Source of the DNA: an uncultured Thermodesulfobacteriota bacterium
Lineage (GTDB): Bacteria > Desulfobacterota > B13-G15
Reading direction: 5' to 3'
DNA: 64,000 nt
Assembly: GCA_964543765.1 (NCBI GenBank)
Contig: CAZIZI010000005.1
Coordinates: 6,121 to 70,120, forward strand
Under the pieces are notes generated by a model. That model was not told the origin of the DNA. It saw only the letters and a program-made list of their open reading frames with translations, and ran no database searches. The position numbers were made by a program, and so were the translations under genes. Of this stretch, positions 2,137 through 16,008 are shown piece by piece; the first letter of the stretch is position 1, and each line of letters starts with the position of its first letter.

Positions 2137-3044
2137 TAAAGGCGATGATGGAAAAGGCGAGACCTTATTTTTCCCTTTTTCATAAGCTTTTCGATCAATG
2201 GAAGGATTTCTCCTTCCTCAAAGCCCAGGCTTATCACGAGGTCTTCTAAGGTTTGAGGTCTTGTATCCAGTATCCTAAGGATCCTCTCCTCAAGGTCTTC
2301 ACGAGGGGAGGATCCTTTTTTTTGGTGAGAAGAGGAGATAAGAAAAGCCTTGGGTCCGAGTTCAGAGGCTATGGCTTTAAGCCTTTCTTCCGGTACCGGA
2401 TAGGCGTAATCTTCAGCTCCAGGCCTTGAGACGGTGTGAACGTGAACCAAATCAGGGTCTATTTGATAAATTACCTCATTCAACAACGCTATATCAGGCG
2501 GATTATCGTTTATGCCCCGACAAAGGAGTACCTCAAGCCATATCTTCCCCTTAAAGACCTTCCGAAAGTCCTTAAGGCCTTGAATAATATTTTCGAGCTT
2601 CAGGTCCGGGTGGGGTCTATTGAGGGTCTCAAAAACACTGGGGTTTGCCGTATCAAGGGAGGGTAAGATCACATCCGCAAGAAGAAGCGCCTCTTTTACC
2701 TCATCCATAAATAAAAGGGAGCTATTGGTTATGACCGCCAATGGATAAGGGCTCATTTCCCTTAATTCCTTAAGAAGATCACCTATTCTTGAATGTAAGG
2801 TGGGTTCGCCCGAACCGGAAACGCTTAGAAAATCAAGCCATTTCGGGGGATTCTTCAGGGCTTCTTCTACTTCTCGAAGTATTTCTTCTAAAGGGATGTA
2901 CTCCTCCCTTTTTATGGTCTTATTGGTGGTCCTTCCCACTTGGCAGTAGATACAATCGAAACTACAAGTCTTTTTGGGGACAAGATCGATCCCTAAACTT
3001 ATGCCGAGCCTTCGAGACATGACTGGACCATAAACGTATTTCAT
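2115..3044 (-). CDS. radical SAM protein (COG0731-like, YGPVxSRRLG family)
   Basis: N-terminal YGPVMSRRLGISLGI and CSFDCIYC (CxxxCxxC). Confidence 0.7.
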   Translation of the reverse strand: MKYVYGPVMSRRLGISLGIDLVPKKTCSFDCIYCQVGRTTNKTIKREEYIPLEEILREVEEALKNPPKWLDFLSVSGSGEPTLHSRIGDLLKELREMSPYPLAVITNSSLLFMDEVKEALLLADVILPSLDTANPSVFETLNRPHPDLKLENIIQGLKDFRKVFKGKIWLEVLLCRGINDNPPDIALLNEVIYQIDPDLVHVHTVSRPGAEDYAYPVPEERLKAIASELGPKAFLISSSHQKKGSSPREDLEERILRILDTRPQTLEDLVISLGFEEGEILPLIEKLMKKGKIRSRLFHHRLYYEALTK

Positions 3045-3061
3045 TCACTATCCCTCACCCT

Positions 3062-3619
3062 TTATCTTTCACCAAAAACTTCCTTATATAAGAACTCTCG
3101 AACTTCCTTTCTCTTCCTGGGTTCGGGGATTTCCTCAGGTAGGCCTAAAGGAATAATCACCACCACCTCCCTGTCCTCGGGAACTTTTAGGATCTCCTTT
3201 ACCCTTTTCGCGTCAAAGGCTCCTACAATAACCGTCCCCAATCCCTTTTCCCAAGCCGCAAGACAAAAATTTTGAACTGCAAGCCCCACGTCAAACATAA
3301 GCCAGTCACCTTTGTCAGTAGCGGGTTTTCCTTGAAAATACCCAGCCTTCCCCTTTTGTCCCAAAAACACCAGGACCCAGGGAGCCTTTTTGGTGGCTTC
3401 ATAAGCCGGATTGTGAGGATGGGAACTCAAAAGAGTTTGGGCCAAGCTTTCCTTCGTTTCAGGATTTCCTACAAGTATCACCTCCCAACATTGAGTGTTA
3501 GCCCACGAAGGGGCCCATTTTACGGCCTCAAGTAGCTCCAGGACCGTTTCTTCCGAGATTGGGTCACTTTTCATCTTCCTTATGGATCTTCTCCCCCTTA
3601 TGGCTTCCCAAACTTCCAT
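3062..3619 (-). CDS. nitroreductase family protein
   Basis: RRSIRKM...VLELLEAVKWAPSWANTQCW nitroreductase fold signature. Confidence 0.75.
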   Translation of the reverse strand: MEVWEAIRGRRSIRKMKSDPISEETVLELLEAVKWAPSWANTQCWEVILVGNPETKESLAQTLLSSHPHNPAYEATKKAPWVLVFLGQKGKAGYFQGKPATDKGDWLMFDVGLAVQNFCLAAWEKGLGTVIVGAFDAKRVKEILKVPEDREVVVIIPLGLPEEIPEPRKRKEVREFLYKEVFGER

Positions 3620-3620
3620 T

Positions 3621-4412
3621 CTATCCTCCTTTTAAAAGGATTCTGGCCTTGAGGGTTAAAGGATATCCGGGTTCTTGATTGAGCATTCGGAAGGATCTAT
3701 TCGCCAACCGTTTTAAGGAAGTGCGGAAGGTTTTGCTTCCCTCAAAATATAAGAACCCTCCTTCTTCTTTCGAGGCCAAAAGCAACTCGGGTTCAAATGG
3801 AATCGCCCCAAGGAGCTTAAGCTTTAAGCCCCTTGGTCTGTGCCACGATTCCTTGTTGAGAACTACCCCTATCGGTTTAATCCCTAATTGTCGGAAAAGG
3901 GTGTTAAGCCTTTTCACCTCAAAAACCGCTCCCCTAGAAGAGTCACTCACAAACAACACTTGAGCCTTTCCCTTGAGAAGTTCGCCCAATGTAAGATGCT
4001 CCTCTCCTATTCCAGGAGGCATATCGATTAACAAAAGCTCAAGATCCCCCCATTGGACTTTATTCAAAAAATGCTGTAAAACCCTGTGCCTTATGGGTCC
4101 CCTCCAGCTCACCGGAGTCCATCGTCGTTCCAAAAAGAGACCAAGCGACAAGACCTTTAAGCCTCTTACCTCCAAAGGTTCAATGTCTTCCTTCAAGGTC
4201 TCAATGCCCAAAGGAGGAATCCCCAGATAAAGGGGAATATCGGGTGAGGAGAGATTTGCATCTAAAATTCCAACCCTTTTTCCTTTCTCTAACCACCTCA
4301 GTGCCAAAAGAAGACTCAAGGTAGTTTTACCTACTCCTCCTTTACCTACAACCAAAAGATAATTCTTTATCTCCAATTCTATGCCTCCAAAAATCTTTTT
4401 GTTTCCCTTCAA
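3621..4412 (-). CDS. MinD/ParA/Mrp-superfamily P-loop ATPase
   Basis: Deviant Walker A VVGKGGVGKTT. No CxxC Fe-S carrier motif is seen. Confidence 0.65.
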   Translation of the reverse strand: MKGNKKIFGGIELEIKNYLLVVGKGGVGKTTLSLLLALRWLEKGKRVGILDANLSSPDIPLYLGIPPLGIETLKEDIEPLEVRGLKVLSLGLFLERRWTPVSWRGPIRHRVLQHFLNKVQWGDLELLLIDMPPGIGEEHLTLGELLKGKAQVLFVSDSSRGAVFEVKRLNTLFRQLGIKPIGVVLNKESWHRPRGLKLKLLGAIPFEPELLLASKEEGGFLYFEGSKTFRTSLKRLANRSFRMLNQEPGYPLTLKARILLKGG

Positions 4413-4414
4413 AC

Positions 4415-4873
4415 CTAAACTTGGGCCTCCTCCACCTCCTTTCGTTTTTCCTGTTGATAAGCTTTTACTTTCTCCCTTACTTGAGGATCGTAAAGCCCAA
4501 TGATCTTAGCTGCCGCTAAAGCTGCTTCTTCGGGTTCAAGAATCACCAAGGGGGCTACCCCGGAAGGCATCCTTAAGCTTGAGAAAATGTCAACCCCACC
4601 GAACTTATCACTGGGGACCGGACAGGCGATAACGGGTTTATAGGTTTGTGCATCCACAAGCCCACTTAAGGCATTGCTCCTTCCGGCTACAGTTATGAAA
4701 AGCTCCACCTCTTCTTCGAATTCCCTTACAAGTTGCAGGACCTTTTCTGGAGTCTTATGAGCCGAAGCAACCTTCATGATCACCTCAAGACCGAAAAGCT
4801 CAAGGTTTTTTTTTATCCTTTCACAATGCGAAAGATCCGATTTCGAACCCATAAAAATGGCGACCTTTCTCAT
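4415..4873 (-). CDS. purE: N5-carboxyaminoimidazole ribonucleotide mutase
   Basis: MGSKSD...SAHKTPEK...AGRSNALSGLVDAQTYKPVIACP, the PurE signature. Confidence 0.85.
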   Translation of the reverse strand: MRKVAIFMGSKSDLSHCERIKKNLELFGLEVIMKVASAHKTPEKVLQLVREFEEEVELFITVAGRSNALSGLVDAQTYKPVIACPVPSDKFGGVDIFSSLRMPSGVAPLVILEPEEAALAAAKIIGLYDPQVREKVKAYQQEKRKEVEEAQV

Positions 4874-5265
4874 ATCCCCAACCTCTTATCTATCGCATCC
4901 TTAATCCTCATGGAAGCTGCCTCATCGCCAAAAGTCCCAACCCTAATCCTGATGAGGGTGACCCTTTCCTCTAACTGTTTGGCCTTGATGCTTACCGGAG
5001 TTCCGGTTGCCGTTTTACCTTTAAGTGATCCCGAAAAGGTGTCTCGAGCTCTTTCGGTCACGGAAATTCCCATATCTTTTACTGCCTCTTCTGTGGCGTG
5101 CCAGACTTTTTCCAAGGGATAGGGATATTGAACTCGGAGTTCCCCACTTATGTATTTGTAAGTGACAACTCCTGCCGCCGCTCCCGCTCCTGCCGCTACA
5201 AGGTAAACACATCCGTAACAGCATAAAAGGGACAAAAGCAAAATTAAAGCTAATTTTTTCATCAA
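4870..5265 (-). CDS. small lipoprotein (DUF3568-like), function unknown
   Basis: Signal peptide with Cys-containing lipobox region (LLCCYGC). 131 aa. Confidence 0.45.
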   Translation of the reverse strand: MMKKLALILLLSLLCCYGCVYLVAAGAGAAAGVVTYKYISGELRVQYPYPLEKVWHATEEAVKDMGISVTERARDTFSGSLKGKTATGTPVSIKAKQLEERVTLIRIRVGTFGDEAASMRIKDAIDKRLGI

Positions 5266-5330
5266 ATACCTCCTTCCCGTATTTTAAGGATACCTTAACA
5301 TCCATACCCCTTATCTTTCAATAACAAAAA

Positions 5331-5960
5331 TCAATAAGCCATGATGATCACATCATAACCCAAAAGTCTCAATTTTTCGGCAAATGCGCGAGCTTCTCCT
5401 TCCTTTAGAAAATTCCCTATTCTAACTCGCCAATAAGTTCCGTTTTCCGTCTTAAAGGGCACTATGTAAGGGACAAAGCCTTGGGCTTTTAGCCTATCAT
5501 AAAGGACCTTGGCCTTTTTCTCTTCCGAAAATGCCCCTACTTGAAGGGTATAACCGAAGACCAGAGGCCCTTCCGGAAAACATATCACTTCCACCTTTAC
5601 CCGGGCCACTCCTTCTTCCACCATCCCCAGGGCTTTTGCTGCAGCATAAGACAAATCGATGATCCTTCCCTCCACCAAAGGCCCCCGGTCCTTTATCTTC
5701 ACCAGAACCGACCGGCCGTTCCCCAAATGGGTGACCATCACTAAGGTCCCAAGGGGAAGAAAATTATGAGCGGCACTTAACTCGTTCATGTCAAAGATCT
5801 CACCGCTTGAGGTCGCCCTTCCATGAAAGGCTTCCCCATACCAAGAGGCTAAGCCATACTGGACCTTCTGGATTTGAGGAGGCGGATATATGACCTTTGG
5901 GGCACAAGAGAAACAAAAGAGAAAAACCCAAAAGAGAAAAACCTTAAGAGAGAATCTCAA
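5331..5960 (-). CDS. rlpA: septal ring lytic transglycosylase RlpA (DPBB plus SPOR domains)
   Basis: ASWYGEAFHGRATSSGEIFD...RGPLVEGRIIDLS (DPBB) and a C-terminal SPOR-like domain. Signal peptide present. Confidence 0.8.
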   Translation of the reverse strand: MRFSLKVFLFWVFLFCFSCAPKVIYPPPQIQKVQYGLASWYGEAFHGRATSSGEIFDMNELSAAHNFLPLGTLVMVTHLGNGRSVLVKIKDRGPLVEGRIIDLSYAAAKALGMVEEGVARVKVEVICFPEGPLVFGYTLQVGAFSEEKKAKVLYDRLKAQGFVPYIVPFKTENGTYWRVRIGNFLKEGEARAFAEKLRLLGYDVIIMAY

Positions 5961-6948
5961 CCTTTAAATCTCCCCTGTTTATGGTTTCATCCTTCTGGAA
6001 AACCATCTCGGTCTTTTCAAATAAGGCTTTGAATCTTTTGAAAATCTCGCCTCTGTGGCCATAAAGAAGTGATTCATCCTTGGGGTTTATCCTCACCAAG
6101 GCCCTTTTGGGGTTATCCTGAAGGTAAAGCTTTAACTTATCCAACAAAAGGGCAGATCTCACCAGTTCGCCAAAAGCGGGATGATAGGGACCAACTACGA
6201 GGTTTCTTTCGAGTTCCTCTTCCCTTTGTAAGCCGATCCTTACCACTTGGATTTGAGCCCTTTGAAACTCGTAAAGGGCCTCTTTGGAAAGCTCCACGGC
6301 CTCCCAAAGCTCCAAAGGCTTATAAAGCCCCTCCCGATACCATTTTTCAAGTTCCGTACCTCTTAAGACAAGTGTTGGATAAATCCTGACAAAAGAAGGT
6401 CTCAATTGAATAACCCTTTTCACGGTTTCTTTGAAGGAATAAACCGTTTCTCCTGGAAGTCCTACCATTATCTGGATCCCCAGCTCAAAGCCCCACTCCT
6501 TAATTAGTTCAGAAGCTTTCATGACAGTTTCAACCCCATAGGGTCTTTTACTTAACTTCAACACCTCCGCATCCATAGATTGGACTCCCAATTCTATGGT
6601 CCTTACCTTTCCCCTTTTTAAGAGCTCGAGGATCCTTTCATCGATTAAATCAGGTCTTGTGGAAAGCCTGATAGAATTAATGAGACCCTTTTCAATAAAG
6701 GGATGGACCGAAAAAAGAAGCCTTTCCTGTAAAAAGAAGGGCAACCCCGTAAAGCTTCCACCGAAAAAGGCCACTTGAACTTCTTCCTTTTCTTTAAGTC
6801 TCTCTTTGAGCCATAATTCTATTTCTTCCCTTATCCTCTCAGGAGATGGAACTTGGGGGCTTTTTCCGACGGTTTTTTCCTGGTCACAATAAACACATCG
6901 GATCTTACAACCCAGATTAGGTATGAAGATGGGAATTACCCTTCTCAT
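5944..6948 (-). CDS. radical SAM protein (ELP3/TIGR01212-like, no GNAT domain)
   Basis: IFIPNLGCKIRCVYC contains a CxxxCxxC motif. Confidence 0.6.
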   Translation of the reverse strand: MRRVIPIFIPNLGCKIRCVYCDQEKTVGKSPQVPSPERIREEIELWLKERLKEKEEVQVAFFGGSFTGLPFFLQERLLFSVHPFIEKGLINSIRLSTRPDLIDERILELLKRGKVRTIELGVQSMDAEVLKLSKRPYGVETVMKASELIKEWGFELGIQIMVGLPGETVYSFKETVKRVIQLRPSFVRIYPTLVLRGTELEKWYREGLYKPLELWEAVELSKEALYEFQRAQIQVVRIGLQREEELERNLVVGPYHPAFGELVRSALLLDKLKLYLQDNPKRALVRINPKDESLLYGHRGEIFKRFKALFEKTEMVFQKDETINRGDLKVEILS

Positions 6949-7606
6949 TTAGCTTGGTTAAAGCCTCCTTAGCTGCTTTTTGTTCGGCTTCTTTTTTCGT
7001 TTTTCCTTCGCCTTTCCCCCAAATATGCCCCTTTATACGCACTACAGCCTCAAAGGTCTTTTGGTGATCAGGTCCCTTTTCGGATATGACCTTATAAACG
7101 GGCGTCTCCTTAAAGATTGCCTGGATTAACTCCTGAAGTTGAGTCTTATAATCGGTATGTTTAAGAGAGGGTTCTTTTATAAAATCCTCAAAAAGCCTTC
7201 TTATGATCTTCAAAGCTTCCTCTAAACCTCCATCAAGGTAAATGGCTCCAATTAAGGCCTCAAAGGCACTGGCCAAAACCGAAGGCTTCCCTCTTCCCCC
7301 ATCAAGCTCTTCCCCCTTTCCCAATCTCAAAAACTCAAAAAGCCCAAGTTTATGCGAGATCTCAAAGAGGGTCTCCTCTTTTACCAAATGGGCCCTTCTT
7401 TTGGAGAGTTCCCCCTCCTTGGCATAAGGAAAGGCCTCAAAGAGCAGATGAGTTATACAGACCCCAAGAACCGAATCCCCCAAAAATTCGAGCCTCTCGT
7501 TATGGGGAAAGCCGTAACTCGGATGAGTGAGAGCTTCCCTTAAGAGGGCCTTTTCCTTAAAACTATATCCGAGCCTTTCTTCTAGCTCCTTAAGCTTTTC
7601 GGCCAT
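6917..7606 (-). CDS. rnc: ribonuclease III
   Basis: ERLEFLGDSVLG signature and a C-terminal dsRBD. Confidence 0.9.
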   Translation of the reverse strand: MAEKLKELEERLGYSFKEKALLREALTHPSYGFPHNERLEFLGDSVLGVCITHLLFEAFPYAKEGELSKRRAHLVKEETLFEISHKLGLFEFLRLGKGEELDGGRGKPSVLASAFEALIGAIYLDGGLEEALKIIRRLFEDFIKEPSLKHTDYKTQLQELIQAIFKETPVYKVISEKGPDHQKTFEAVVRIKGHIWGKGEGKTKKEAEQKAAKEALTKLNEKGNSHLHT

Positions 7607-7715
7607 CCGAGTTTAAACTTATAAATTCCGTTACATTAAGTCAAACCGAAAGCCTATCCCCTCACGCTTTACCCTTTGCACTTTAAGTGTTATCTTCAAA
7701 CAAAAGGAGTTGTAA

Positions 7716-8792
7716 ATGAAGAGGGGCGAGGCCCTTTTACCTCTTCATTGGGGTGAGGCTCCCAGGTGGCTTTTCGAAAGGATGGTCAACTTAGGCAGGG
7801 GGATCCTTGAGGTTTTGGTGTTTGAATTTGGTCAAGAAGAGGTTTTGCGGAGGCTTTCGGATCCATTTTGGTTTCAGGCCTTGGGTTGTCTCTTAGGGTT
7901 CGACTGGCATTCAAGCGGATTGACAACGACCGTATGTGGAGCTTTGAAAGAGGCCTTAAAAGGCCGAGAGAAAGAGCTTAGGATTTTTGTAGCAGGTGGA
8001 AAAGGTAAAATGGCTCTTCGGACCCCTGAAGAGATCTCCAGTTATGGAGAAAGGTTTGGAATGGAAGTTAGTGATTTTATAAGGATCAGTCGTCTTGTGG
8101 CCAAGATCGATAATGCGGCTCTTCAGGACGGGTATCACCTTTATCATCACACCTTCTTCTTCACCTCCCAAGGCCACTGGTGTGTGATCCAGCAAGGGAT
8201 GAATCCCGATAATCACTATGCTCGAAGGTACCATTGGTCTTCAGATGAGTTGGAGGATTTTTGTTCCGATCCCCATAAGGCCATATGCTGTGACCAGAGG
8301 ACAAACGCCCTTAACTTGGTAGCTAAAGAAAGTGAAGGGGCAAGAAGGGCTATTGTTGAGATCTGTAACTCTCCTCCTTCTTCAGTTATGAAGGAATTAA
8401 GATCGCTAAAAACCTTGGTGCTTCCTGAGAGACATTATGTCTCTCTTGAAGATCTTTCCGAGGAAAGAATGCAGAAGATCCTTCTTAAGACTTGTGAAAC
8501 TCAACCACAAGGCTTTGAGGAGGTGCTTCTGGTTGAAGGCCTTGGTCCCAAAGCTTTGAGGGCCTTAAGCCTTCTTTCCGAACTTCTTTACGGTGAGCCC
8601 CCGTGTTTTAAGGACCCCGCTCGTTTTAGTTTTGCCCATGGTGGTAAAGATGGAAGGCCTTATCCCGTTAATCGAGTCCTTTACGATATGACCATCGAGG
8701 TCCTAAAGGATTGTCTTTCCCGGGCCAAAATTGGTGACACCGAGAAGCTTAAGGCTTTGAGGAGGCTTGATTCTTGGTATCTCAGATCGTAA
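7716..8792 (+). CDS. DUF763 domain protein (COG1415-like, mostly archaeal family)
   Basis: N-terminal HWGEAPRWLFERMVNLG motif that I recall for DUF763. 358 aa. Confidence 0.55.
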   Translation: MKRGEALLPLHWGEAPRWLFERMVNLGRGILEVLVFEFGQEEVLRRLSDPFWFQALGCLLGFDWHSSGLTTTVCGALKEALKGREKELRIFVAGGKGKMALRTPEEISSYGERFGMEVSDFIRISRLVAKIDNAALQDGYHLYHHTFFFTSQGHWCVIQQGMNPDNHYARRYHWSSDELEDFCSDPHKAICCDQRTNALNLVAKESEGARRAIVEICNSPPSSVMKELRSLKTLVLPERHYVSLEDLSEERMQKILLKTCETQPQGFEEVLLVEGLGPKALRALSLLSELLYGEPPCFKDPARFSFAHGGKDGRPYPVNRVLYDMTIEVLKDCLSRAKIGDTEKLKALRRLDSWYLRS

Positions 8793-8812
8793 GCGAACCC
8801 CTTTCTTGGAGA

Positions 8813-10066
8813 ATGCGTCCTTTGAGTTTTGATGAGTTCGTGGGACAGGAACATCTTTTAGGGGAAAAGGGGCCTTTGAGAAGGATGATAGAGTCCAAAA
8901 GGGTTATTTCGTTTTTGCTTTGGGGGCCTCCCGGCTGTGGGAAGACCACCTTGGGAGAACTTTTTGCCAAGGCCATAAGGGCCCATTTCGTTTACGGAAG
9001 TGCGGTACTTTGGGGTTTGAAAGAAGTAAGAGATGCAATAGTTGAGGCTCAAAAGCGATTAAGAGCCGGACAGAGGACCATACTTTTCCTTGACGAGATC
9101 CATCGGTTTAACCGGGCCCAGCAAGATGCCCTTCTCCCTTGGGTTGAAAAAGGTACCATTATCCTCATAGGTTCAACCATTAATAACCCCTCCTTTGGAA
9201 TTATTCCTTCGCTTTTATCGCGATTAAGGGTTTTTACCCTTCGAGCTTTAAGGGATGATGAGGTTCTTCTTATCTTAAAAAGGGCGCTTTCCGATCCTGA
9301 GAGGGGACTTGGGGCCTTTAAGATTGAACTTGAGGATGGGGTTTTGGAGCTTATTGCCTCTCTTTCTCAGGGTGATGCTCGTTGGGCTTTAAATACGCTG
9401 GAGATGGTTTTCATTTTGGCCGAAGAAAGAAACGGAAAAAAGTTTATAGGGAAAGAAATCGTTCTTCAATCAACTCAGAAACCCCTTCTTTACGATCGGG
9501 AAGGCGAGGAGCATTACAACCTGATAAGCGCCTATCAAAAGTCCATAAGGGGCAGTGATCCCGATGGGGCCATCTACTGGCTTGCGAGAATGCTCGAATC
9601 GGGAGAGGACCCCCTTTATATAGCGAGAAGGATGATCGTATGTGCTGCCGAGGACATAGGCTTGGCCGACCCGATGGCGCTCCTTGTCGCCGTAAGCGCC
9701 CTTCAAGCCTTTCAAATTTTGGGGCAGCCCGAAGGAGAGCTGGCCTTAGCTGAAGCGACCCTTTATCTGGCCACAGCCCCCAAATCCAATTCCGCCATGG
9801 TGGCTCTTGAGAAGGCTCGAGAAGAGGTGAAGGAAAAAGGGGCTATTCCGGTGCCTCTTCATTTGAGAAATGCCCCTACGAAGTTATTAAAGGAATTGGG
9901 CTATGGCAAAGATTACCTTTATCCCCATGATTACAAAGAAGGGTTTGTAGAACAAACATATCTGCCCGAAGGCCTTAAAGGAGGGTATTATCGACCTTCG
10001 GAAAGGGGCTATGAGAAGGAGATTTCTCAGAGGCTTTTAAAGTGGTGGAAGGACAGGTGGAAATGA
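8813..10066 (+). CDS. rarA: replication-associated recombination protein A (AAA+ ATPase RarA/MgsA)
   Basis: WGPPGCGKTTL Walker A, DEIHRFN sensor and MgsA C-terminal domain. Start trimmed to ATG 8813, inside the longer track ORF. Confidence 0.85.
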   Translation: MRPLSFDEFVGQEHLLGEKGPLRRMIESKRVISFLLWGPPGCGKTTLGELFAKAIRAHFVYGSAVLWGLKEVRDAIVEAQKRLRAGQRTILFLDEIHRFNRAQQDALLPWVEKGTIILIGSTINNPSFGIIPSLLSRLRVFTLRALRDDEVLLILKRALSDPERGLGAFKIELEDGVLELIASLSQGDARWALNTLEMVFILAEERNGKKFIGKEIVLQSTQKPLLYDREGEEHYNLISAYQKSIRGSDPDGAIYWLARMLESGEDPLYIARRMIVCAAEDIGLADPMALLVAVSALQAFQILGQPEGELALAEATLYLATAPKSNSAMVALEKAREEVKEKGAIPVPLHLRNAPTKLLKELGYGKDYLYPHDYKEGFVEQTYLPEGLKGGYYRPSERGYEKEISQRLLKWWKDRWK

Positions 10067-11334
10067 GATATTTCCTCTGTGATTTTCACGTTCATAGCTC
10101 CTTCAGTCGGGCCACAAGCCCTGAGATGAACCTAGAAGGTCTTGTTCGGTGGGGAAAGATTAAGGGTTTGAGTATTGTGGGAACGGGTGATTTTACCCAT
10201 CCTTCTTATTTTGCGGAGATTAAGGAAAAGCTTGAGGAAAGCGAACCAGGGATTTATCGTCTTAAAAAGGGAGAACGGTCGGTTGGGCTTATAATTACCG
10301 GAGAGGTTTGCAATATCTTTGATCAAGGTCCTAAGAAAAATCGCCGGGTTCACACTTTAATTTTCGTCCCCAATATTGAGACTGCTGAAAAGATAAATAA
10401 ACTTCTTTCCCATTACGGGGATCTTTCTCAGGACGGAAGGCCCACGTTCACCTTTCCGGTTAAGGACTTGGTGAAGATGGTGCTTGATTGTTCTGAGGAT
10501 TGTCTTATTGTTCCTGCTCATGCCTGGACTCCCTGGTTTTCGGTTTTTGGGGCCAATTCGGGGTTTGATTCGTTGGAAGAATGTTTTGAAGAAGAGGCGA
10601 AATACGTTTATGCCATTGAGACCGGGCTTTCCTCAAACCCTCAGATGAACTGGCGCATTTCAAATCTGGATAGAATTTCCATAATCTCCAACTCCGATGC
10701 CCATTCGCCAAGACATGTAGCTCGGGAGGCTACTGCCTTTTGTTGTGAGCTTTCCTATTACGAGATAGTTAGGGCGATAAAGGAAAAGGATCCGAAAGGG
10801 CTTGCCTTCACGGTCGAGTTTTTCCCTGAAGAAGGCAAATACCATTACGATGGTCATAGGATTTGTGGGGTTTTGTTCTCTCCCAAGGAGACAAAGGCTC
10901 ACAATTACTTATGCCCCAAATGCGGCAAACCTTTAACCGTTGGGGTTATGCACCGAGTGGAGGAGTTGGCCGATAGACCCGAGGGCTTCATTCCACCTGG
11001 GGCCATCCCTGCTATACATATCATTCCTCTTGAGGAGATAATCGCCGAAGCCTTAGGCGTTGGGAAGGGTTCTAAAGCCGTTGATCGGGAGTATTTCCGG
11101 TTGATAGAACAAGGAGAATCGGAATTTAAGGTCCTTCTTGAGCTTCCTCCTGAGGAGCTTCGAAGGATTGCGCCTCCAAAAATATATGAGGGGATCCTCC
11201 GAGTCCGTAAGGGTGAACTTGAGATTGTTCCGGGGTTCGATGGGGTTTATGGTAAAATAAAAATCTTTCCGGATTCTCGGGATGAGACTCCCAGGGACGA
11301 AAAGGTCCCAGAAACCCAGATGAAGCTTTTCTGA
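10063..11334 (+). CDS. endonuclease Q family protein (PHP domain plus Zn ribbon)
   Basis: DFHVHSSFSRA, GTGD, HTLIFVP, PAHAWTPW, NSDAHSP, CPKCGKP and C-terminal VPGFDGVYGKIKI follow the EndoQ motif order as I remember it. ATGA start/stop overlap with rarA. Confidence 0.7.
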   Translation: MRYFLCDFHVHSSFSRATSPEMNLEGLVRWGKIKGLSIVGTGDFTHPSYFAEIKEKLEESEPGIYRLKKGERSVGLIITGEVCNIFDQGPKKNRRVHTLIFVPNIETAEKINKLLSHYGDLSQDGRPTFTFPVKDLVKMVLDCSEDCLIVPAHAWTPWFSVFGANSGFDSLEECFEEEAKYVYAIETGLSSNPQMNWRISNLDRISIISNSDAHSPRHVAREATAFCCELSYYEIVRAIKEKDPKGLAFTVEFFPEEGKYHYDGHRICGVLFSPKETKAHNYLCPKCGKPLTVGVMHRVEELADRPEGFIPPGAIPAIHIIPLEEIIAEALGVGKGSKAVDREYFRLIEQGESEFKVLLELPPEELRRIAPPKIYEGILRVRKGELEIVPGFDGVYGKIKIFPDSRDETPRDEKVPETQMKLF

Positions 11335-12767
11335 TGCCCCAGCTCTCGGAAGAATTCTTGGTTTTTTTGGAAGACCTTTTGGGTGAGGAAAAGGGGGCCT
11401 TTCTTTCCACAATAGGCCTTAAATCACCTCCGTTTTTCAGAATAAATACCCTGAGGACCGATGACGAAAAGGCCTTAAAGCTTTTGGAGGAAGAGGGTTT
11501 TAAAGCCCTTCCTTTAGATGGCCTTCCTCATGCCTATTCGGTCTTAGAGGAACCATTTCCTTTGGGATGTAGCTTTTCCCACTACCTGGGTAACATTTAC
11601 CTTCAAGACCCAAGCTCCATGGTTCCTCCTTTGGTGCTTGAACCAAAAGAAGGGGAGCTTGTTGTTGATGTGGCTTCGGCTCCGGGGTCAAAAACCACCC
11701 AAATGGCCTCTCTTATGGGGAATAAGGGACTTATTCTGGCCAATGAGGTATCGGTTAAGCGATCCAAATCCCTTTCCTACAATTTGATGAAGCTCGGGGT
11801 GATAAATGCGGTAGTAACCCTTCTTGATGGGAATCGTTTGGGGAAGCTTTACTTTGAGACGTTTGATAAGGTGCTCTTGGATCCTCCTTGTAGTGCTCTG
11901 GGAACGCTTAAGACCTCAGTTGAACCCTTAAAATGGTGGAAGATGAAGCGATCGGAAAAGCTCTCCCATTTACAATGGAACCTTCTTGTAAGCGCCATTA
12001 AAGCCTTAAAACCGGGTGGGATTCTGGTTTATTCCACCTGTACGATTGTCCCCTTAGAAAACGAGGCCCTGATCTCACGAGCGGTAAAAGAATACGGGCT
12101 TGAGATCGAGGAGATAAGATGGAATGCCTTCAAGGCAAGAGCTGGTCTTAAGGAGTTTAGAGGTGAAAGATTCGTAGAGGGGATAGAACGCACAATAAGG
12201 ATTTATCAACATGAAGTACCAGGTGAAGGCTTTTTTATCGCCAAATTAAGAAAAGTCCGAGAAAATAAACCTCCTAAAGAACGACCCCCGTTGGAACCTT
12301 TGCCATTAGTTGACAGATGGGACAATAGGGTAAAGAGCTTTTTGGATGTTCTTACCGATCACTTTGGCCTCTCTCAGGATCTCTTTGAAGGGTTTTTGTT
12401 TGAAAGGGCTAAGGAACTTCGCATCTATCCCCTTGAGGCCAAAAACATGTCTTTTTATAAGTACAGTCATCGAGGCCTTCCTCTGGTTAAATTAGAGGGA
12501 AGCTTTCCCATTTTAACTACCTGGGGAGCCCAATTTTTAAGCAAATGGGCCACCAAAAACGTGATCGACCTAAAGGATCCTAAGGAGTTGCTCTTCTTTT
12601 TGAAACATAAACCCATTCCCCTTGAACCAAACCGGAAAGGTCAACAGATAGTGCTTTATAAAGGGCATCCAGTGGGATATGGGATAGCCTCCGGTGGTTA
12701 TTTAAAAAGCCGAGCCAAAGCCAGAAAGGAAGTCAGATGGCCTTTTTGCCTTTTTCCTCCTCCTTAA
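11334..12767 (+). CDS. NOL1/NOP2/Sun-family RNA m5C methyltransferase (RsmF-like, with C-terminal extension)
   Basis: DVASAPGSKTTQ (motif I), LLDPPCSALG (motif IV) and YSTCTIVPLENE. 1-nt TGATG overlap with the preceding gene. Confidence 0.75.
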   Translation: MPQLSEEFLVFLEDLLGEEKGAFLSTIGLKSPPFFRINTLRTDDEKALKLLEEEGFKALPLDGLPHAYSVLEEPFPLGCSFSHYLGNIYLQDPSSMVPPLVLEPKEGELVVDVASAPGSKTTQMASLMGNKGLILANEVSVKRSKSLSYNLMKLGVINAVVTLLDGNRLGKLYFETFDKVLLDPPCSALGTLKTSVEPLKWWKMKRSEKLSHLQWNLLVSAIKALKPGGILVYSTCTIVPLENEALISRAVKEYGLEIEEIRWNAFKARAGLKEFRGERFVEGIERTIRIYQHEVPGEGFFIAKLRKVRENKPPKERPPLEPLPLVDRWDNRVKSFLDVLTDHFGLSQDLFEGFLFERAKELRIYPLEAKNMSFYKYSHRGLPLVKLEGSFPILTTWGAQFLSKWATKNVIDLKDPKELLFFLKHKPIPLEPNRKGQQIVLYKGHPVGYGIASGGYLKSRAKARKEVRWPFCLFPPP

Positions 12768-12770
12768 GTT

Positions 12771-12799
12771 TTGACAATTTTTAAACTTTCTTATAGAGT
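12771..12799 (+). promoter_or_regulatory. sigma70-like promoter (TTGACA, 17-nt spacer, TAGAGT) ending 6 nt before the ATG, implying a leaderless or near-leaderless mRNA
   Basis: Near-consensus hexamers. No SD sequence is present before ATG 12806. Confidence 0.4.
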
Positions 12800-12805
12800 G
12801 CTTCT

Positions 12806-14827
12806 ATGGTGCGGTTGAAGGGGCTAGTGCTTCCTTTTTTAGCCTTTTTGATCCTTTTCTCCTTAAGACTTTATCAAGCCAATTTTATCTTCAAGGAAAA
12901 AGAGTTTTATTTTTGGGGCAAAAACATTCCCCTGCTTTCTTCTTCTGACGGTTATTACTTTTTGCGCCTTGCCCATCTTTTTAAAGAAGGTTCCTATAAA
13001 GGGAAAGCACCTGATCCCTTGAGGAATGCCCCTGATAATCAACTTAACCCTGATTCCGAAAGGGCCGTGAGGTTTCCCTCGATTCCTCCTCTTATTTCGG
13101 TTCTTTTGGCCTTTTTGTCTTATTTGACGGGGGTTTCTCCCGAGAGGGTTTTTGTGGTTTTTCCATTAATCCCCTTTTTGGGCTCTCTTTTAGCCTTTCC
13201 GCTTTATGGAATAGGGAAGAGGCTTTGGGGAGAGCTATGTGGTTTTGGTATGGCTTTAGGGGGTGGGTTATGTCTTGAGTACGTCATAAGGACCGACCTT
13301 TTGAGGATCGATACTGAAGCAATAGCTTTGGTGTTTTTCTTTGCGGTTATTTATTCCATGTTTTTGCTCCTTGAGGATTTCAATCTGAAAAACCTGATCT
13401 TGTTTAGCATTTTCGTTCATCTTTACCAGTGGTGGTACAGCCACCCAGGTTTACTCTTACCCCTTTTGGTGGCTTACGGTTTGACCTTTTTTTTGGTCGA
13501 AAAATTATCCCTTAAGGAATCGGCAAAAAGAACGCTTATTTTAGCCCTTTTTTCAAATCCCTTAATACTTTTCAACGGGATTTTTAACCTTTTGCAGATG
13601 ATAAGTGGCTATATACCTGGGCTTTTGCCCGAACAATTGGGCTTTATACCTCGTTCGGTTTTTGCTCGCTCAGTAAGCGAACTGCAAAGGCTTCCCATTA
13701 AGGTCGTTCTTTCCATGGTTTCAAGTCATTATGTGATTGGCTTCTTAGGTCTTTTTGGCTTTTTGGTTATTTTTCTTAAAACCAGAAGGCCCCTTTTGAT
13801 CTCCCCTCTTTTTATACTTGGCCTAATGAGCCTTTTTGGAGCGAGGCGTTTTATGATATGGCTTGGCCCCTTTGTAGGGCTTGGCCTTGGGGTTTTGCTT
13901 CAATATTGCTTTGAGGTCTTAAAGGGAAGGTTAAAATTTAATCCCGTACTCATAAAGGTGGCTTTATTGATCTTATTGCTTCTTTCAAGCGTTTCCCCTA
14001 AAAGTCTGACTTTTGTTCCCCTTTGCCCCTACGGGAGGCCCCTTTTGGAAGGAATAAAGGAGCTCGAAAGGATAACTCCGGAAGGAAGTTTCGTATGGTC
14101 CTGGTGGGATTACGGTTATGTTATCTCCCTTGTAGCCAAAAGGCCCGTTTATCATGATGGAGGAAGTTGGGGAGGGCCAAAGAGCATTCTTGTGGCAAGG
14201 TCATTGGCCTTAGATGATCCCGAAAAAGCCTATAACATCATTAACGGCACCACCTCCCTTGGAGAAGAGGGGATAAGGGAGCTTCTTGAAAAGGGGGAAA
14301 GTCCTTCTTCCATAATAAGCCAGATAGAGAACGGGCTTTACAATAAGGAGTTGAAAAGTAAGATTTACCTTCTTTTAACGGGTGATGACATAAGTAAATT
14401 TTTTTGGATCTCCTTTTTTGGAACTTGGGATCCCGAAAGGGAAAAGGCAGAACACCTTTTTTACTTTCCCCTTGGTTTATGCAAGATGAATGAGGAAAGG
14501 ATAAGGTGTCAAAATGGGATTTTTGAGCTTAAAAAAGGGATCTTACAATTAAGGGGAGGGGACGTTATAAAGGTAGGAAGGGTCAAGATGGTTGAACTAG
14601 ATGATAGGGATTTTCCTCAAAAAAGGGAAAACCTGAAAGAAGGGGATGGTTTTTTCCTTATTTTAGTGAAAAAGAAAGACCATCTTTTTGGATGGGTGGC
14701 TCATCCCAAGGTCCAAAGCACCATGTTTCAAAGGCTTTTCTTTGAGGAGGGTGAAGTCGGAAACTTCAAGCTCGTTTTTTCAAATTTCCCTTATCTTCGA
14801 GTTTTTGAGGTAACTGAAAGAAGATGA
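12806..14827 (+). CDS. oligosaccharyltransferase, PglB/STT3 family (N-glycosylation catalytic subunit)
   Basis: About 13 TM helices. SSDGYYFLRLA in the first external loop resembles PglB NDGYAFAEGARD. WWDYGY lies at 14102-14119, followed by HDGGSWGGPKS...SLALDDPEKA, which aligns to PglB VDGGKHLGKD...SLSKDEQAA. Confidence 0.75.
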   Translation: MVRLKGLVLPFLAFLILFSLRLYQANFIFKEKEFYFWGKNIPLLSSSDGYYFLRLAHLFKEGSYKGKAPDPLRNAPDNQLNPDSERAVRFPSIPPLISVLLAFLSYLTGVSPERVFVVFPLIPFLGSLLAFPLYGIGKRLWGELCGFGMALGGGLCLEYVIRTDLLRIDTEAIALVFFFAVIYSMFLLLEDFNLKNLILFSIFVHLYQWWYSHPGLLLPLLVAYGLTFFLVEKLSLKESAKRTLILALFSNPLILFNGIFNLLQMISGYIPGLLPEQLGFIPRSVFARSVSELQRLPIKVVLSMVSSHYVIGFLGLFGFLVIFLKTRRPLLISPLFILGLMSLFGARRFMIWLGPFVGLGLGVLLQYCFEVLKGRLKFNPVLIKVALLILLLLSSVSPKSLTFVPLCPYGRPLLEGIKELERITPEGSFVWSWWDYGYVISLVAKRPVYHDGGSWGGPKSILVARSLALDDPEKAYNIINGTTSLGEEGIRELLEKGESPSSIISQIENGLYNKELKSKIYLLLTGDDISKFFWISFFGTWDPEREKAEHLFYFPLGLCKMNEERIRCQNGIFELKKGILQLRGGDVIKVGRVKMVELDDRDFPQKRENLKEGDGFFLILVKKKDHLFGWVAHPKVQSTMFQRLFFEEGEVGNFKLVFSNFPYLRVFEVTERR

Positions 14828-15396
14828 GGGGTCTTTTAATAATTTTCTTAAGTGTTCTTTTTCTTTTCCCTTCTTTGGGCCTTTCACTTGAGGGAAAGGT
14901 CATAGAGGTTTTTGATGGTGATACCATATTGGTTTTAATTGATGGGCAAGAGGTAAAAGTGAGGCTTTATTGTATAGATGCCCCTGAGCTTTTACAACCC
15001 TATGGGAGAACTGCCAAGGATTTCTTATCGAGACTCCTTTTGGAGAAAAACGTTAAGGTAAAAGAGAGAGGAACTGACCAGTATGGGCGGGTTTTGGGAG
15101 AGGTATTTCTTGATGGGGAGATCTCGGTAAATGAGGAGCTCGTAAAAAGCGGGATGGCCTGGGTTTACAGAAAATACTGTAAGATCCCTTCCTATTTTAC
15201 CCTCGAAAAAACGGCAAGGGAAAATAGAGTTGGCTTATGGGAAGATGAAAGCCCCATTCCCCCCTGGGAATACCGTAAAAAAGAAAGGGAGAGAGGAATT
15301 GAGCTGGGGAATACGTATTTTCTTTTAGTCCTTTTACTTTTAGTGCTTTTTCTAAGCCTCAGTTGGAGAAGAAAAGGAAGAAGGAGAAAAAATTAG
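14824..15396 (+). CDS. SNase-like thermonuclease, secreted with a C-terminal membrane anchor
   Basis: VFDGDTILV...VRLYCIDAPE is the staphylococcal nuclease motif. N-terminal signal peptide; C-terminal hydrophobic segment plus RRKGRRRKN tail. ATGA overlap with the OST gene. Confidence 0.75.
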   Translation: MRGLLIIFLSVLFLFPSLGLSLEGKVIEVFDGDTILVLIDGQEVKVRLYCIDAPELLQPYGRTAKDFLSRLLLEKNVKVKERGTDQYGRVLGEVFLDGEISVNEELVKSGMAWVYRKYCKIPSYFTLEKTARENRVGLWEDESPIPPWEYRKKERERGIELGNTYFLLVLLLLVLFLSLSWRRKGRRRKN

Positions 15397-15397
15397 C

Positions 15398-15426
15398 TTG
15401 ACAAACACCTTTTTATGGCATTAAAT
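15398..15426 (+). promoter_or_regulatory. sigma70-like promoter (TTGACA, 17-nt spacer, TTAAAT) for the pilin genes
   Basis: -35 at 15398-15403 and -10 at 15421-15426. AAGGAGGTGGAGG RBS before ATG 15511. Confidence 0.45.
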
Positions 15427-15510
15427 GTATTAGATGAAACAAAGGGATTCTCCAGAAGTTTGAATTGAGTTAAAATTTTTAAAATTTTAAACCTTTAAAG
15501 GAGGTGGAGG

Positions 15511-16008
15511 ATGGAAGTTTTAAGTGTTTTAAAGAAAAGGGTGAAGGCGAAAAAGGGTTTCACGCTGATTGAGTTGATGATCGTTGTTGCCATTTTGGGC
15601 ATTTTGGCCGCCATAGCTATTCCCACCTATATGGATTATACGAAAAGGGCGAAGGTAAGTGAGGCAATAAGCTTGCTTTCGGGAATGGCGAATGCCATAG
15701 CGGAGTATCATACTTCATATGGAAGTATGCCAACTAGCATAGACGATATTGGAGGAGGAAAAACAAGTAGATATGTGACCAGTATGACGTGGGGAGGAAG
15801 AGAGACATACGGCAACAACACTTATTGTTCCATAAATGCAACCCTTGGCAACATTGGAACAGGAGTTGATAGTAAGACGCTTACCCTTTATGTGATTTAT
15901 AGGGCAAATAATGAGACTTATGATAAATGTTGGGAATGGAGCATTGAGGATAAATACGTTCCTACAAGCGTTCGAGAAAAGAGATTTAATACTCCTAACT
16001 GTCCATGA
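15511..16008 (+). CDS. type IV pilin (prepilin with class III signal)
   Basis: KKG|[22 protein letters not shown] has Gly-1, Phe+1 and Glu+5. Three N-x-S/T sequons lie in the C-terminal globular part. Confidence 0.85.

Follow-up and report, generated by a model that had tools for sequence, protein, structure and literature searches.

Endonuclease Q (EndoQ) is an enzyme that cuts DNA at the phosphodiester bond lying immediately 5' of deoxyuridine (dU), deoxyinosine (dI), deoxyxanthosine (dX), and apurinic/apyrimidinic (AP) sites, and this activity has been described for the enzyme of Pyrococcus furiosus (PfuEndoQ), for that of T. kodakarensis (TkoEndoQ), and for a Bacillus enzyme (PMC4357722, PMC5961232). 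Archaeal EndoQ binds PCNA through a C-terminal PCNA-interacting protein (PIP) box and is stimulated by it (PMC4858679). Homologues in Bacillus and Desulfovibrio and the activity of the Bacillus enzyme have already been reported (PMC4357722, PMC5961232), and motifs of the type that binds the bacterial β sliding clamp have already been remarked in bacterial homologues (PMC4858679). Here we analyze an endoQ gene in a stretch of 64,000 nucleotides (the window) of contig CAZIZI010000005.1 from an uncultured Thermodesulfobacteriota bacterium. At positions 7716-12767 of the window, the list of open reading frames (ORFs) and a reading of the sequence gave four ORFs, all on the + strand and each overlapping its neighbor, which encode in this order a DUF763 protein, the ATPase RarA, EndoQ, and an RsmF-like RNA methyltransferase (Table 1). 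This arrangement is not described in three published studies of EndoQ (PMC5961232, PMC4357722, PMC4858679). The four genes appear to form a vertically inherited, lineage-specific operon, and the conserved core of this operon is the pair of DUF763 and EndoQ. We suggest, with about an even chance of being right, that EndoQ nicks damaged DNA while tethered to the clamp, that RarA couples this step to replication, that DUF763 acts in the same lesion route, and that the RsmF-like protein is a passenger.

Compared to PfuEndoQ, the EndoQ of the window retains the overall layout and the active site of the prototype. A search against the PDB matched the P. furiosus EndoQ structures (5zb8, 7k30-33) with an E value of 5e-50 and residues 7-402 aligned, and the protein also matches the NCBIfam model TIGR00375; there was no match in the copy of Pfam searched. 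The layout consists of a PHP domain, a Zn-binding domain, and a helical domain at the C-terminus, and the alignment runs through the helical domain to residue 402. In PfuEndoQ, the two-metal site is formed by His8, His10, Glu76, His84, His139, and Asp193, and the enzyme also has a lesion pocket adjoining the metal site and a Zn site with four cysteines (C4) (PMC5961232). All six metal ligands are identical in the window protein (H9, H11, E81, H97, H153, and D212). The lesion pocket is kept as well, with H153, T156, E186, G188, N210, and D212 standing for Pfu His139, Thr142, Glu167, Gly169, Asn191, and Asp193, and a Thr is found at the position of Pfu L168. Ten Pfu positions were checked for conservation in 89 bacterial homologues assembled from the fetched loci. 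The equivalents of H8, H10, E76, H84, H139, T142, E167, G169, and D193 are invariant where aligned (H8 and H10 in 88/89, with one sequence gapped), and the equivalent of N191 is present in 87/89. A protein identical to the window EndoQ is on record (P0121, from a 76-kb contig).

The window EndoQ differs from PfuEndoQ in two respects. First, its Zn-binding site has the ligands H-C-C-C in place of C4. All 89 of the bacterial homologues share this set, which is a variant of the Zn ligands with no loss of the site, and the His at the first position is a clade signature setting these bacterial EndoQs apart from the archaeal prototype. Second, the protein ends in QMKLF, where the archaeal enzyme carries a PIP box. 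This tail has the form of a bacterial β-clamp-binding motif, and a C-terminal pentapeptide of the type Qxx[LM]F, preceded by a variable charged linker, is present in 83/89 bacterial homologues. In its three-domain layout (aligned end to end with the Pfu enzyme), its metal and pocket residues, and its possession of a C-terminal clamp peptide, the protein resembles both PfuEndoQ and TkoEndoQ with their PCNA and the EndoQs of Bacillus pumilus and B. subtilis. A connection of EndoQ with the clamp and with replication is plausible on the basis of these motifs.

The first-pass annotation had read the block as DUF763, RarA, EndoQ, and a Sun-family 5-methylcytosine (m5C) RNA methyltransferase linked by start/stop overlaps, and the family searches reported here and below agree with each of these assignments. 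The overlaps could be read directly in the sequence. At 10063-10066 (ATGA), the ATG of EndoQ overlaps the TGA of RarA, and at 11332-11336 (TGATG), the TGA of EndoQ and the ATG of the RsmF-like gene share one base. A further overlap, between DUF763 and RarA, can now be added. The stop codon of DUF763 lies at 8790-8792, and RarA, if counted from TTG 8774, overlaps it by 19 nt. This TTG is most likely the start of RarA, because a perfect AGGAGG (8760-8765) lies 8 nt upstream of it and because it keeps the N-terminal segment PLSWRMRP, which would be lost with a start at ATG 8814; the segment is presumably the same as in E. coli RarA. The DUF763 ATG is preceded, 6 nt ahead, by GGAG. Scans found terminator-like and promoter-like sites within the operon only at chance frequency.

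The gene order was compared in two samples, one of DUF763 loci from 80 species-representative genomes, compared by tblastn, and one of 80 metagenomic EndoQ loci without taxonomy. Because ORFs in the fetched loci were called by a simple longest-ORF heuristic, small gaps and overlaps given for these loci are approximate. The order is not unique to this genome. RarA follows DUF763 in 13/80 DUF763 loci (L001-L008, L011, L012, L016, L066), all of them metagenome-assembled genomes (MAGs) of Thermodesulfobacteriota or "Deltaproteobacteria," and EndoQ comes next in 8 and RsmF in 4 of the 13. At one locus from Omnitrophota (L067), EndoQ follows DUF763 and RarA is missing. Three EndoQ homologues (62-68% identity) were looked up individually, and all three have DUF763 directly upstream, in three flank contexts. 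The orders read were SPL, NTP_transf_2, HEPN, DUF763, EndoQ, and DUF72 in L081; GT9, an 85-aa ORF, DUF763, RarA, a 159-aa ORF, and EndoQ in L083; and GT9, an EF-Tu-D2-like 85-aa ORF, DUF763, and EndoQ in L084. Among the 80 metagenomic EndoQ loci, about 20 have DUF763 just upstream, directly so in about 17-18 and with RarA in between in another 2-3, and DUF763 was found in 11 of the 45 loci having at least 2.5 kb of upstream sequence.

An unbootstrapped neighbor-joining tree of EndoQ placed the DUF763-EndoQ and DUF763-RarA-EndoQ loci in sister clades and the EndoQ of L067 on a distant branch. Furthermore, the DUF763 of L067 is nearest to DUF763 proteins that are not linked to EndoQ. The juxtaposition in L067 is thus best explained as independent, and the adjacency of DUF763 and EndoQ appears to have arisen at least twice and to have been kept through turnover of the flanking genes. 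These comparisons point to the DUF763-EndoQ pair as the conserved core of the operon. The window rarA overlaps both DUF763 and endoQ, a placement limited to one sub-clade.

The searched literature on DUF763, PF05559, COG1415, and IPR008482 consists of one paper, a domain census of 2005, and no functional study was found there. The window protein matches PF05559 over its full length (E 6e-134, 446.7 bits against a cutoff of 35.5, profile positions 3-319 of 319), and no NCBIfam model matches it. An exhaustive profile search gave 3705 clusters at 50% identity with E <= 1e-3, and there were at least 8000 matches with a bacterial query and likewise at least 8000 with an archaeal query. The 150 best family representatives show no evident domain fusion, and nearly all of them are about 350-440 aa or shorter fragments; the exception is P0482, a protein of 444 aa whose N-terminus is extended by about 170 aa. 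The matches listed include bacteria of the Nitrospirota, Chloroflexota, Omnitrophota, Aminicenantes, KSB1, WOR-3, Aquificota, and Acidobacteriota and archaea of the DPANN, Altiarchaeales, Methanosarcinales, and Nitrososphaerota. The family had been labeled predominantly archaeal, and this label has to be given up, as DUF763 is abundant across many bacterial phyla. It can be explained by the census of 2005, which listed many cultured archaea plus rhizobia and Xanthomonas, and it no longer holds.

The conservation of DUF763 is high. Bacterial and archaeal sequences are about 50% identical, and in an alignment of 40 sequences from both domains, the columns are on average 60% identical. Among the invariant residues are C58, D63, S66-S67-G68, K78, G94-G95-K96-G97, K130, D132, Q137, Y143-H144-H145, Q159-Q160-G161, R170-R171-Y172-H173-W174, H187, G275, G277, R282, D300-P301, and G309-G310-K311-D312. 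An AlphaFold2 model (pLDDT 83.6, pTM 0.80) predicts an α/β protein with an N-terminal helical part and a four-stranded sheet, and the sheet bears most of the invariant His, Arg, and Gln residues. DUF763 thus looks like an enzyme-like protein under strong constraint. Toward its C-terminus are a candidate helix-hairpin-helix (HhH)-like motif and a loop in which G309, G310, K311, D312, and P315 are invariant in bacteria and archaea and for which pLDDT falls below 50 (residues 307-320). Like HhH repair enzymes (EndoIII and other HhH-GPD proteins, and Pol β-type 5'-deoxyribose phosphate lyases), DUF763 has a hairpin of the form G-h-G-P-K-x-h-R preceded by a helix. An hhalign comparison aligned DUF763 residues 253-282 with the HhH in EndoIII of E. 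coli with a pairwise E of 0.0034 and a probability of 9.6%, and a precomputed match to PF00633 (HHH) exists for two archaeal DUF763 homologues. Unlike HhH repair enzymes, DUF763 shows no fold similarity to them and no Pfam HhH or HhH-GPD match and is predicted to be α/β, so that the resemblance is one of a single motif. Taken together, the evidence for an HhH is consistent, if weak. By eye, two H-x-S/T motifs (H65-S-S and H144-H-T) also raised the idea of a 2H-phosphoesterase, which was rejected because Foldseek gave no 2H fold.

The remaining two proteins belong to known families. RarA matches MgsA_C (E 5e-71), AAA_assoc_2, AAA, and RuvB_N in Pfam and also the PRK13341/RarA models, with full-length matches to PF00004, PF16193, and PF12002. 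It has the Walker A sequence GPPGCGKT, encoded at 8924-8947, and a DEIHR sequence, and it resembles RarA/MgsA proteins (E. coli RarA, yeast Mgs1, human WRNIP1) in having the full domain set and the Walker A motif. To our knowledge, rarA is not usually described as operonic with a lesion endonuclease. The methyltransferase matches PF01189 (Methyltr_RsmB-F) with E 1e-44 and 152.8 bits (cutoff 27) and TIGR00446 with 241 bits against a cutoff of 210, and DPPCS and TCT Cys motifs are present in the translation. PF17125 (the RsmF N-terminal domain) and PF13636 (PUA-like) also match, with scores slightly under their own cutoffs. Like RsmF, which makes m5C1407 in 16S rRNA, and other NOL1/NOP2/Sun proteins, it thus combines an RsmF N-terminal domain, an RsmB/F core, and a PUA-like C-terminal domain. 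Unlike the RsmF equivalog, it stays below the specificity cutoffs (PRK11933, 227.5 bits against 588; the Thermus RsmF model, 189.6 against 690); its membership is therefore at the family level only, which leaves its RNA target uncertain. Nothing indicates that it is linked to cytosine methylation or deamination in DNA. It is probably a translationally coupled passenger with a role in rRNA or tRNA.

These features can be combined into a possible mechanism. EndoQ, tethered to the β clamp, would nick DNA immediately 5' of dU, dI, dX, or AP sites, and a clamp-tethered EndoQ would be the bacterial counterpart of the PCNA-stimulated archaeal enzyme. RarA would act as a clamp-loader-like AAA+ ATPase at stalled forks or gaps, and its co-expression may mean that, in this lineage, lesions located at the fork or behind it are handled in association with replication. 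DUF763 would be a DNA-binding enzyme in the lesion-processing route of EndoQ, as suggested by its HhH-like motif, the cluster of invariant His, Arg, Lys, Asp, and Gln residues on its β-sheet, and its unmatched fold. Its step could precede the nick, in which case it would make or recognize the EndoQ substrate, or follow the nick, in which case it would trim the 5' lesion end or hand it over to a polymerase and ligase. Because DUF763 is also found without EndoQ, it would not be an obligate EndoQ subunit.

Outside the EndoQ clade, DUF763 is found beside other genes related to DNA. In 6-7 species of Anaerolineales, a gene for an SplB-like radical-SAM protein whose C-terminal domain is HHH_8 lies upstream of DUF763 and Fpg lies downstream; this three-gene arrangement occupies about 6000-9500 in each of L029, L032, L035, L040, L042, and L052. 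A family-B DNA polymerase (PolB) gene adjoins DUF763 or lies within 2 kb of it in L069 (about 2400-6393), L165 (559-6041), L174 (1-2690), and L055 (2113-6667) and also in L057. Of these, L069, L165, and L174 are archaeal (Aenigmarchaeota-like and Methanosarcinales MAGs), and L055 and L057 are MAGs labeled Clostridia. In L069, a THEP1-type NTPase gene (PF03266) overlaps the DUF763 stop. MazG, DinB_2, and DUF429 are other DNA-related neighbors of DUF763, and an SPL-family gene is nearby in L081. EndoQ and family-B polymerase both deal with uracil and hypoxanthine (PMC5045986). As both enzymes handle these bases, the bacterial link of DUF763 to EndoQ and its archaeal link to PolB are suggestive, and the argument is circumstantial.

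The first-pass annotation had proposed a part for DUF763 in replication-coupled repair of deaminated bases. The recurring DUF763-EndoQ pair and the clamp motif favor this part of the proposal, and several other observations weigh against it. The adjacency essentially amounts to one EndoQ clade plus one independent case, and much of the count reflects shared ancestry. There is no DUF763 at 34/45 EndoQ loci with at least 2.5 kb upstream, neither RarA nor EndoQ at 67/80 DUF763 loci, and no DUF763 between the same flanks at several loci inside the clade (L088, L089, L095-L097, L102). RarA is a sub-clade insertion between DUF763 and EndoQ and no general partner, and RsmF is a younger addition, linked to EndoQ, among the loci sampled, only in the window and in L002-L005. 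The neighbors of DUF763 elsewhere are heterogeneous. They include unrelated genes such as a macro-domain gene with methylglyoxal synthase, a spermidine-synthase-like gene, and the genes for ornithine carbamoyltransferase, enolase, and a GGDEF protein, and in Thermodesulfovibrio, TruA, ProB, and Obg stand beside DUF763. On rhizobial megaplasmids, where a DUF763 copy occurs in 230 plasmid records, the gene stood alone among transport and metabolic genes at the three loci inspected, which are uninformative. Furthermore, DUF763 was recorded in Sulfolobus, Pyrobaculum, Thermoplasma, rhizobia, and Xanthomonas (2005 domain census), and no EndoQ-like protein was found in Thermoproteales and Thermoplasmatales (PMC4357722). 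Since DUF763 thus occurs in lineages reported to be free of EndoQ, it cannot depend on EndoQ. No structural link of DUF763 to DNA enzymes emerged: the DUF763 model found no fold match in the PDB (Foldseek, best E 0.88) and none among viral models, and sequence and profile searches of the PDB gave chance-level matches only. The support for an HhH in DUF763 is itself weak, and a Pfam search with the C-terminal 115 residues at E <= 10 returned DUF763 only and no HHH.

Several of these points fit a mixed housekeeping operon, held together by genome compaction only and inherited as one-clade synteny, in which DUF763 would be unrelated to EndoQ and to DNA repair and might, for example, serve tRNA, rRNA, or nucleotide metabolism. 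We regard this account as possible, if somewhat doubtful. It is favored by the short gaps (-4 to +18 nt) that separate DUF763 from Dtd (three WOR-3 loci, overlapping), a ThiI/tRNA-methyltransferase-like PP-loop ATPase (two loci), QueH (one locus), and an EF-Tu-domain-2-like ORF (at least five loci); the first three of these partners also count against a repair role. The RNA m5C methyltransferase in the window operon and the divergent neighbors TruA and rnc are of the same kind, and both the unlinked state of most DUF763 and EndoQ loci and the presence of DUF763 in EndoQ-free lineages are expected if the two genes have nothing to do with each other. Such an operon does not readily explain why DUF763 and EndoQ came together independently in Omnitrophota (L067) or why the pair stays while both of its flanks change. 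Repair and replication neighbors also recur in unrelated lineages (Fpg with the SplB-like radical-SAM gene, PolB in at least three lineages, and MazG), and the HhH-like motif of DUF763 again speaks for DNA.

If DUF763 and EndoQ do share a route, DUF763 might be a new enzyme of the DNA glycosylase/AP-lyase type, with an HhH, a Gly/Pro loop, and an Asp, that makes AP sites for EndoQ. The sequence GLGPKALRAL...YG-x-x-P-x-F-x-D-P, with G275, G277, D300, and P301 invariant, looks like HhH-GPD by eye, the hhalign comparison falls on the EndoIII HhH, and DUF763 has both Fpg and EndoQ as neighbors, the latter an enzyme that cleaves AP sites (PMC4357722). We consider this quite improbable. The low-probability hhalign match stops short of the GPD segment, Foldseek found no HhH-GPD or other glycosylase fold, Pfam gave neither HhH-GPD (PF00730) nor HHH, and the predicted α/β fold with its four-stranded sheet contrasts with the all-α fold of HhH-GPD. 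Membership of DUF763 in HhH-GPD was accordingly rejected, and what is left is a weak match at the level of the motif. It is very improbable that the block is a recent horizontal import from archaea, an origin that had been suggested for it at first and that did not survive the comparison. EndoQ was first found in Thermococcales, and an archaeal origin with transfer to bacteria has been proposed for it (PMC4357722, PMC4858679, PMC5961232); DUF763 was mostly archaeal among the complete genomes of 2005 (2005 domain census), and its similarity between bacteria and archaea is unusual. The composition of all four genes is nevertheless that of the window, with a GC content of 0.45-0.48 (0.447±0.025 over 53 long ORFs of the window) and a codon-usage distance of 0.63-0.82 (0.85±0.18); GC content at third codon positions (GC3) and codon distance lie at or below the window mean. 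Because GC, GC3, and codon usage fall within the window spread, the composition gives no hint of a recent transfer, which was rejected on these grounds. The nearest homologues of DUF763 and EndoQ are bacterial (55-95% identity) with conserved bacterial synteny, the closest DUF763 locus among the 80 species-representative loci being 95% identical and from an uncultured Thermodesulfobacteriota MAG (L001). Bacterial EndoQs (n=89) share the H-C-C-C and β-clamp motifs and not C4 and the PIP box, neither EndoQ nor RarA was near DUF763 at 8/8 archaeal loci inspected, and RarA and RsmF are ordinary bacterial genes. An anti-phage or foreign-DNA module, in which EndoQ and DUF763 would restrict DNA containing uracil, hypoxanthine, or other modifications, is barely conceivable. 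In its favor, a restriction-modification pair (RE_EcoO109I/N6_N4_Mtase), a radical-SAM gene of the SPL family, and a pair of NTP_transf_2 and HEPN genes stand just upstream of DUF763-EndoQ at L081 and L082 (1-7251; GCA_900174565.1 and a contig nearly identical to it), a setting that resembles a defense island and was not seen at the other loci. In the window and at most loci, the flanks are of the housekeeping type (rnc, Obg, GT9, and RsmF), and genome maintenance suits both the clamp-binding motif and what is known of the repair biochemistry. PADLOC gave no match for DUF763 or EndoQ and only generic AAA and methyltransferase matches for RarA and RsmF, and the defense reading was rejected.

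RarA, RsmF, and EndoQ are of kinds already known, and so are the bacterial homologues of EndoQ and the clamp motifs that they carry. Three points were not found in the searched literature: the recurrent pairing of DUF763 and EndoQ, the insertion of RarA between them, and DUF763 as an ultra-conserved and structurally unmatched protein that often stands beside repair or replication genes. The steps that follow the EndoQ nick in bacteria are poorly defined, and the conserved, partly independent link between DUF763 and EndoQ supplies a concrete hypothesis for them. The links of DUF763 to Fpg, SplB-like enzymes, and family-B polymerase in other lineages point the same way. A wider proposal, which we think rather unlikely, is that DUF763 would be an unrecognized and near-universally conserved repair enzyme with a fold not in the PDB, acting in association with replication on deaminated or abasic lesions together with β-clamp-bound EndoQ (and here RarA) in bacteria and, in archaea, with the family-B polymerase that senses uracil and hypoxanthine. 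If this were true, the part of DUF763 could be the removal of the 5' lesion nucleotide that EndoQ leaves, or it could create or mark the substrate. If the DUF763 link fails, the locus would be a bacterial EndoQ operon as anticipated by the EndoQ literature.

Table 1. Features of the operon region, with positions in the window
Feature	Position	Strand	Remarks
Intergenic region	7607..7715	.	109 bp, divergent; between rnc (-) and DUF763; presumed operon promoter region
DUF763	7716..8792	+	First operon gene, 358 aa, PF05559
DUF763 HhH-like motif GLGPKALRAL, residues about 267-292	8514..8591	+	Candidate motif; G275, G277, R282 invariant
DUF763 loop F-x-H-G-G-K-D-G-x-P-x-P-V, residues 306-318	8631..8669	+	Predicted flexible
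RarA/MgsA	8774..10066	+	430 aa counted from TTG 8774
EndoQ	10063..11334	+	423 aa from ATG 10063; ORF listed at 10042/10063
EndoQ Zn-binding site H265, C268, C284, C287	10855..10923	+	H-C-C-C vs archaeal C4
QMKLF pentapeptide, β-sliding-clamp-binding-type motif	11317..11331	+	Last five EndoQ residues
RsmF-like methyltransferase	11334..12767	+	477 aa, NOL1/NOP2/Sun RNA m5C
Sigma-70-like site TTGACA-17-TAGAGT	12771..12799	+	After operon, ahead of STT3/PglB-like ORF

Several small genes accompany DUF763 and EndoQ at related loci. An ORF of 155-167 aa, which has a hydrophobic segment near its N-terminus and gave no Pfam match, lies between rarA and endoQ in L002, L003, L008, L016, L066, L083, and L085-L087; neither the window nor L005 has it, and there rarA abuts endoQ. 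A stand-alone 85-aa ORF resembling EF-Tu domain 2 (PF03144) was found in L093 (995-1252), L041 (3535-3792), L084 (4181-4438), and about 40 other loci. This ORF lies no more than four ORFs upstream of EndoQ in 24/45 loci with enough upstream sequence, on both deep branches of the EndoQ tree, and the place between this ORF and EndoQ is taken variously by DUF763, a radical-SAM gene, an MgtC-like gene, a gene for a 320-aa protein of unknown kind, or a permease gene. In L041 and L050, where no EndoQ was found in the fetched sequence, the PF03144 ORF adjoins DUF763. The 85-aa EF-Tu-D2-like gene, the 160-aa gene intervening between rarA and endoQ, and a 204-aa downstream gene of the sister lineages are all absent from the window. 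On a Woesearchaeota chromosome (L168, 4019-6101), the end of a LAGLIDADG-type homing-endonuclease-like ORF (340 aa) reaches 40 nt into DUF763 as annotated, and the opposite strand carries, 2.5 kb upstream, an EF-Tu-D2-like ORF of 83 aa.

On its 5' side, the operon is bounded by the divergent rnc gene (7606-6917, - strand), identified by family profile matches, and a promoter scan called no consensus sigma-70 site in the region between them (7607-7715). On its 3' side is a 38-nt gap that holds the best sigma-70-like site of the region, with 10/12 matches in a scan of 7400-15600, and this site probably marks the 3' boundary of the operon. Downstream is an ORF for an STT3/PglB-like oligosaccharyltransferase (12806-14827), and its stop is overlapped by the start of the next ORF (14824-15396), which has a staphylococcal-nuclease domain. 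The -10 element of the sigma-70-like site ends just 6 nt ahead of the STT3/PglB-like ATG, which suggests a very short leader for this ORF.

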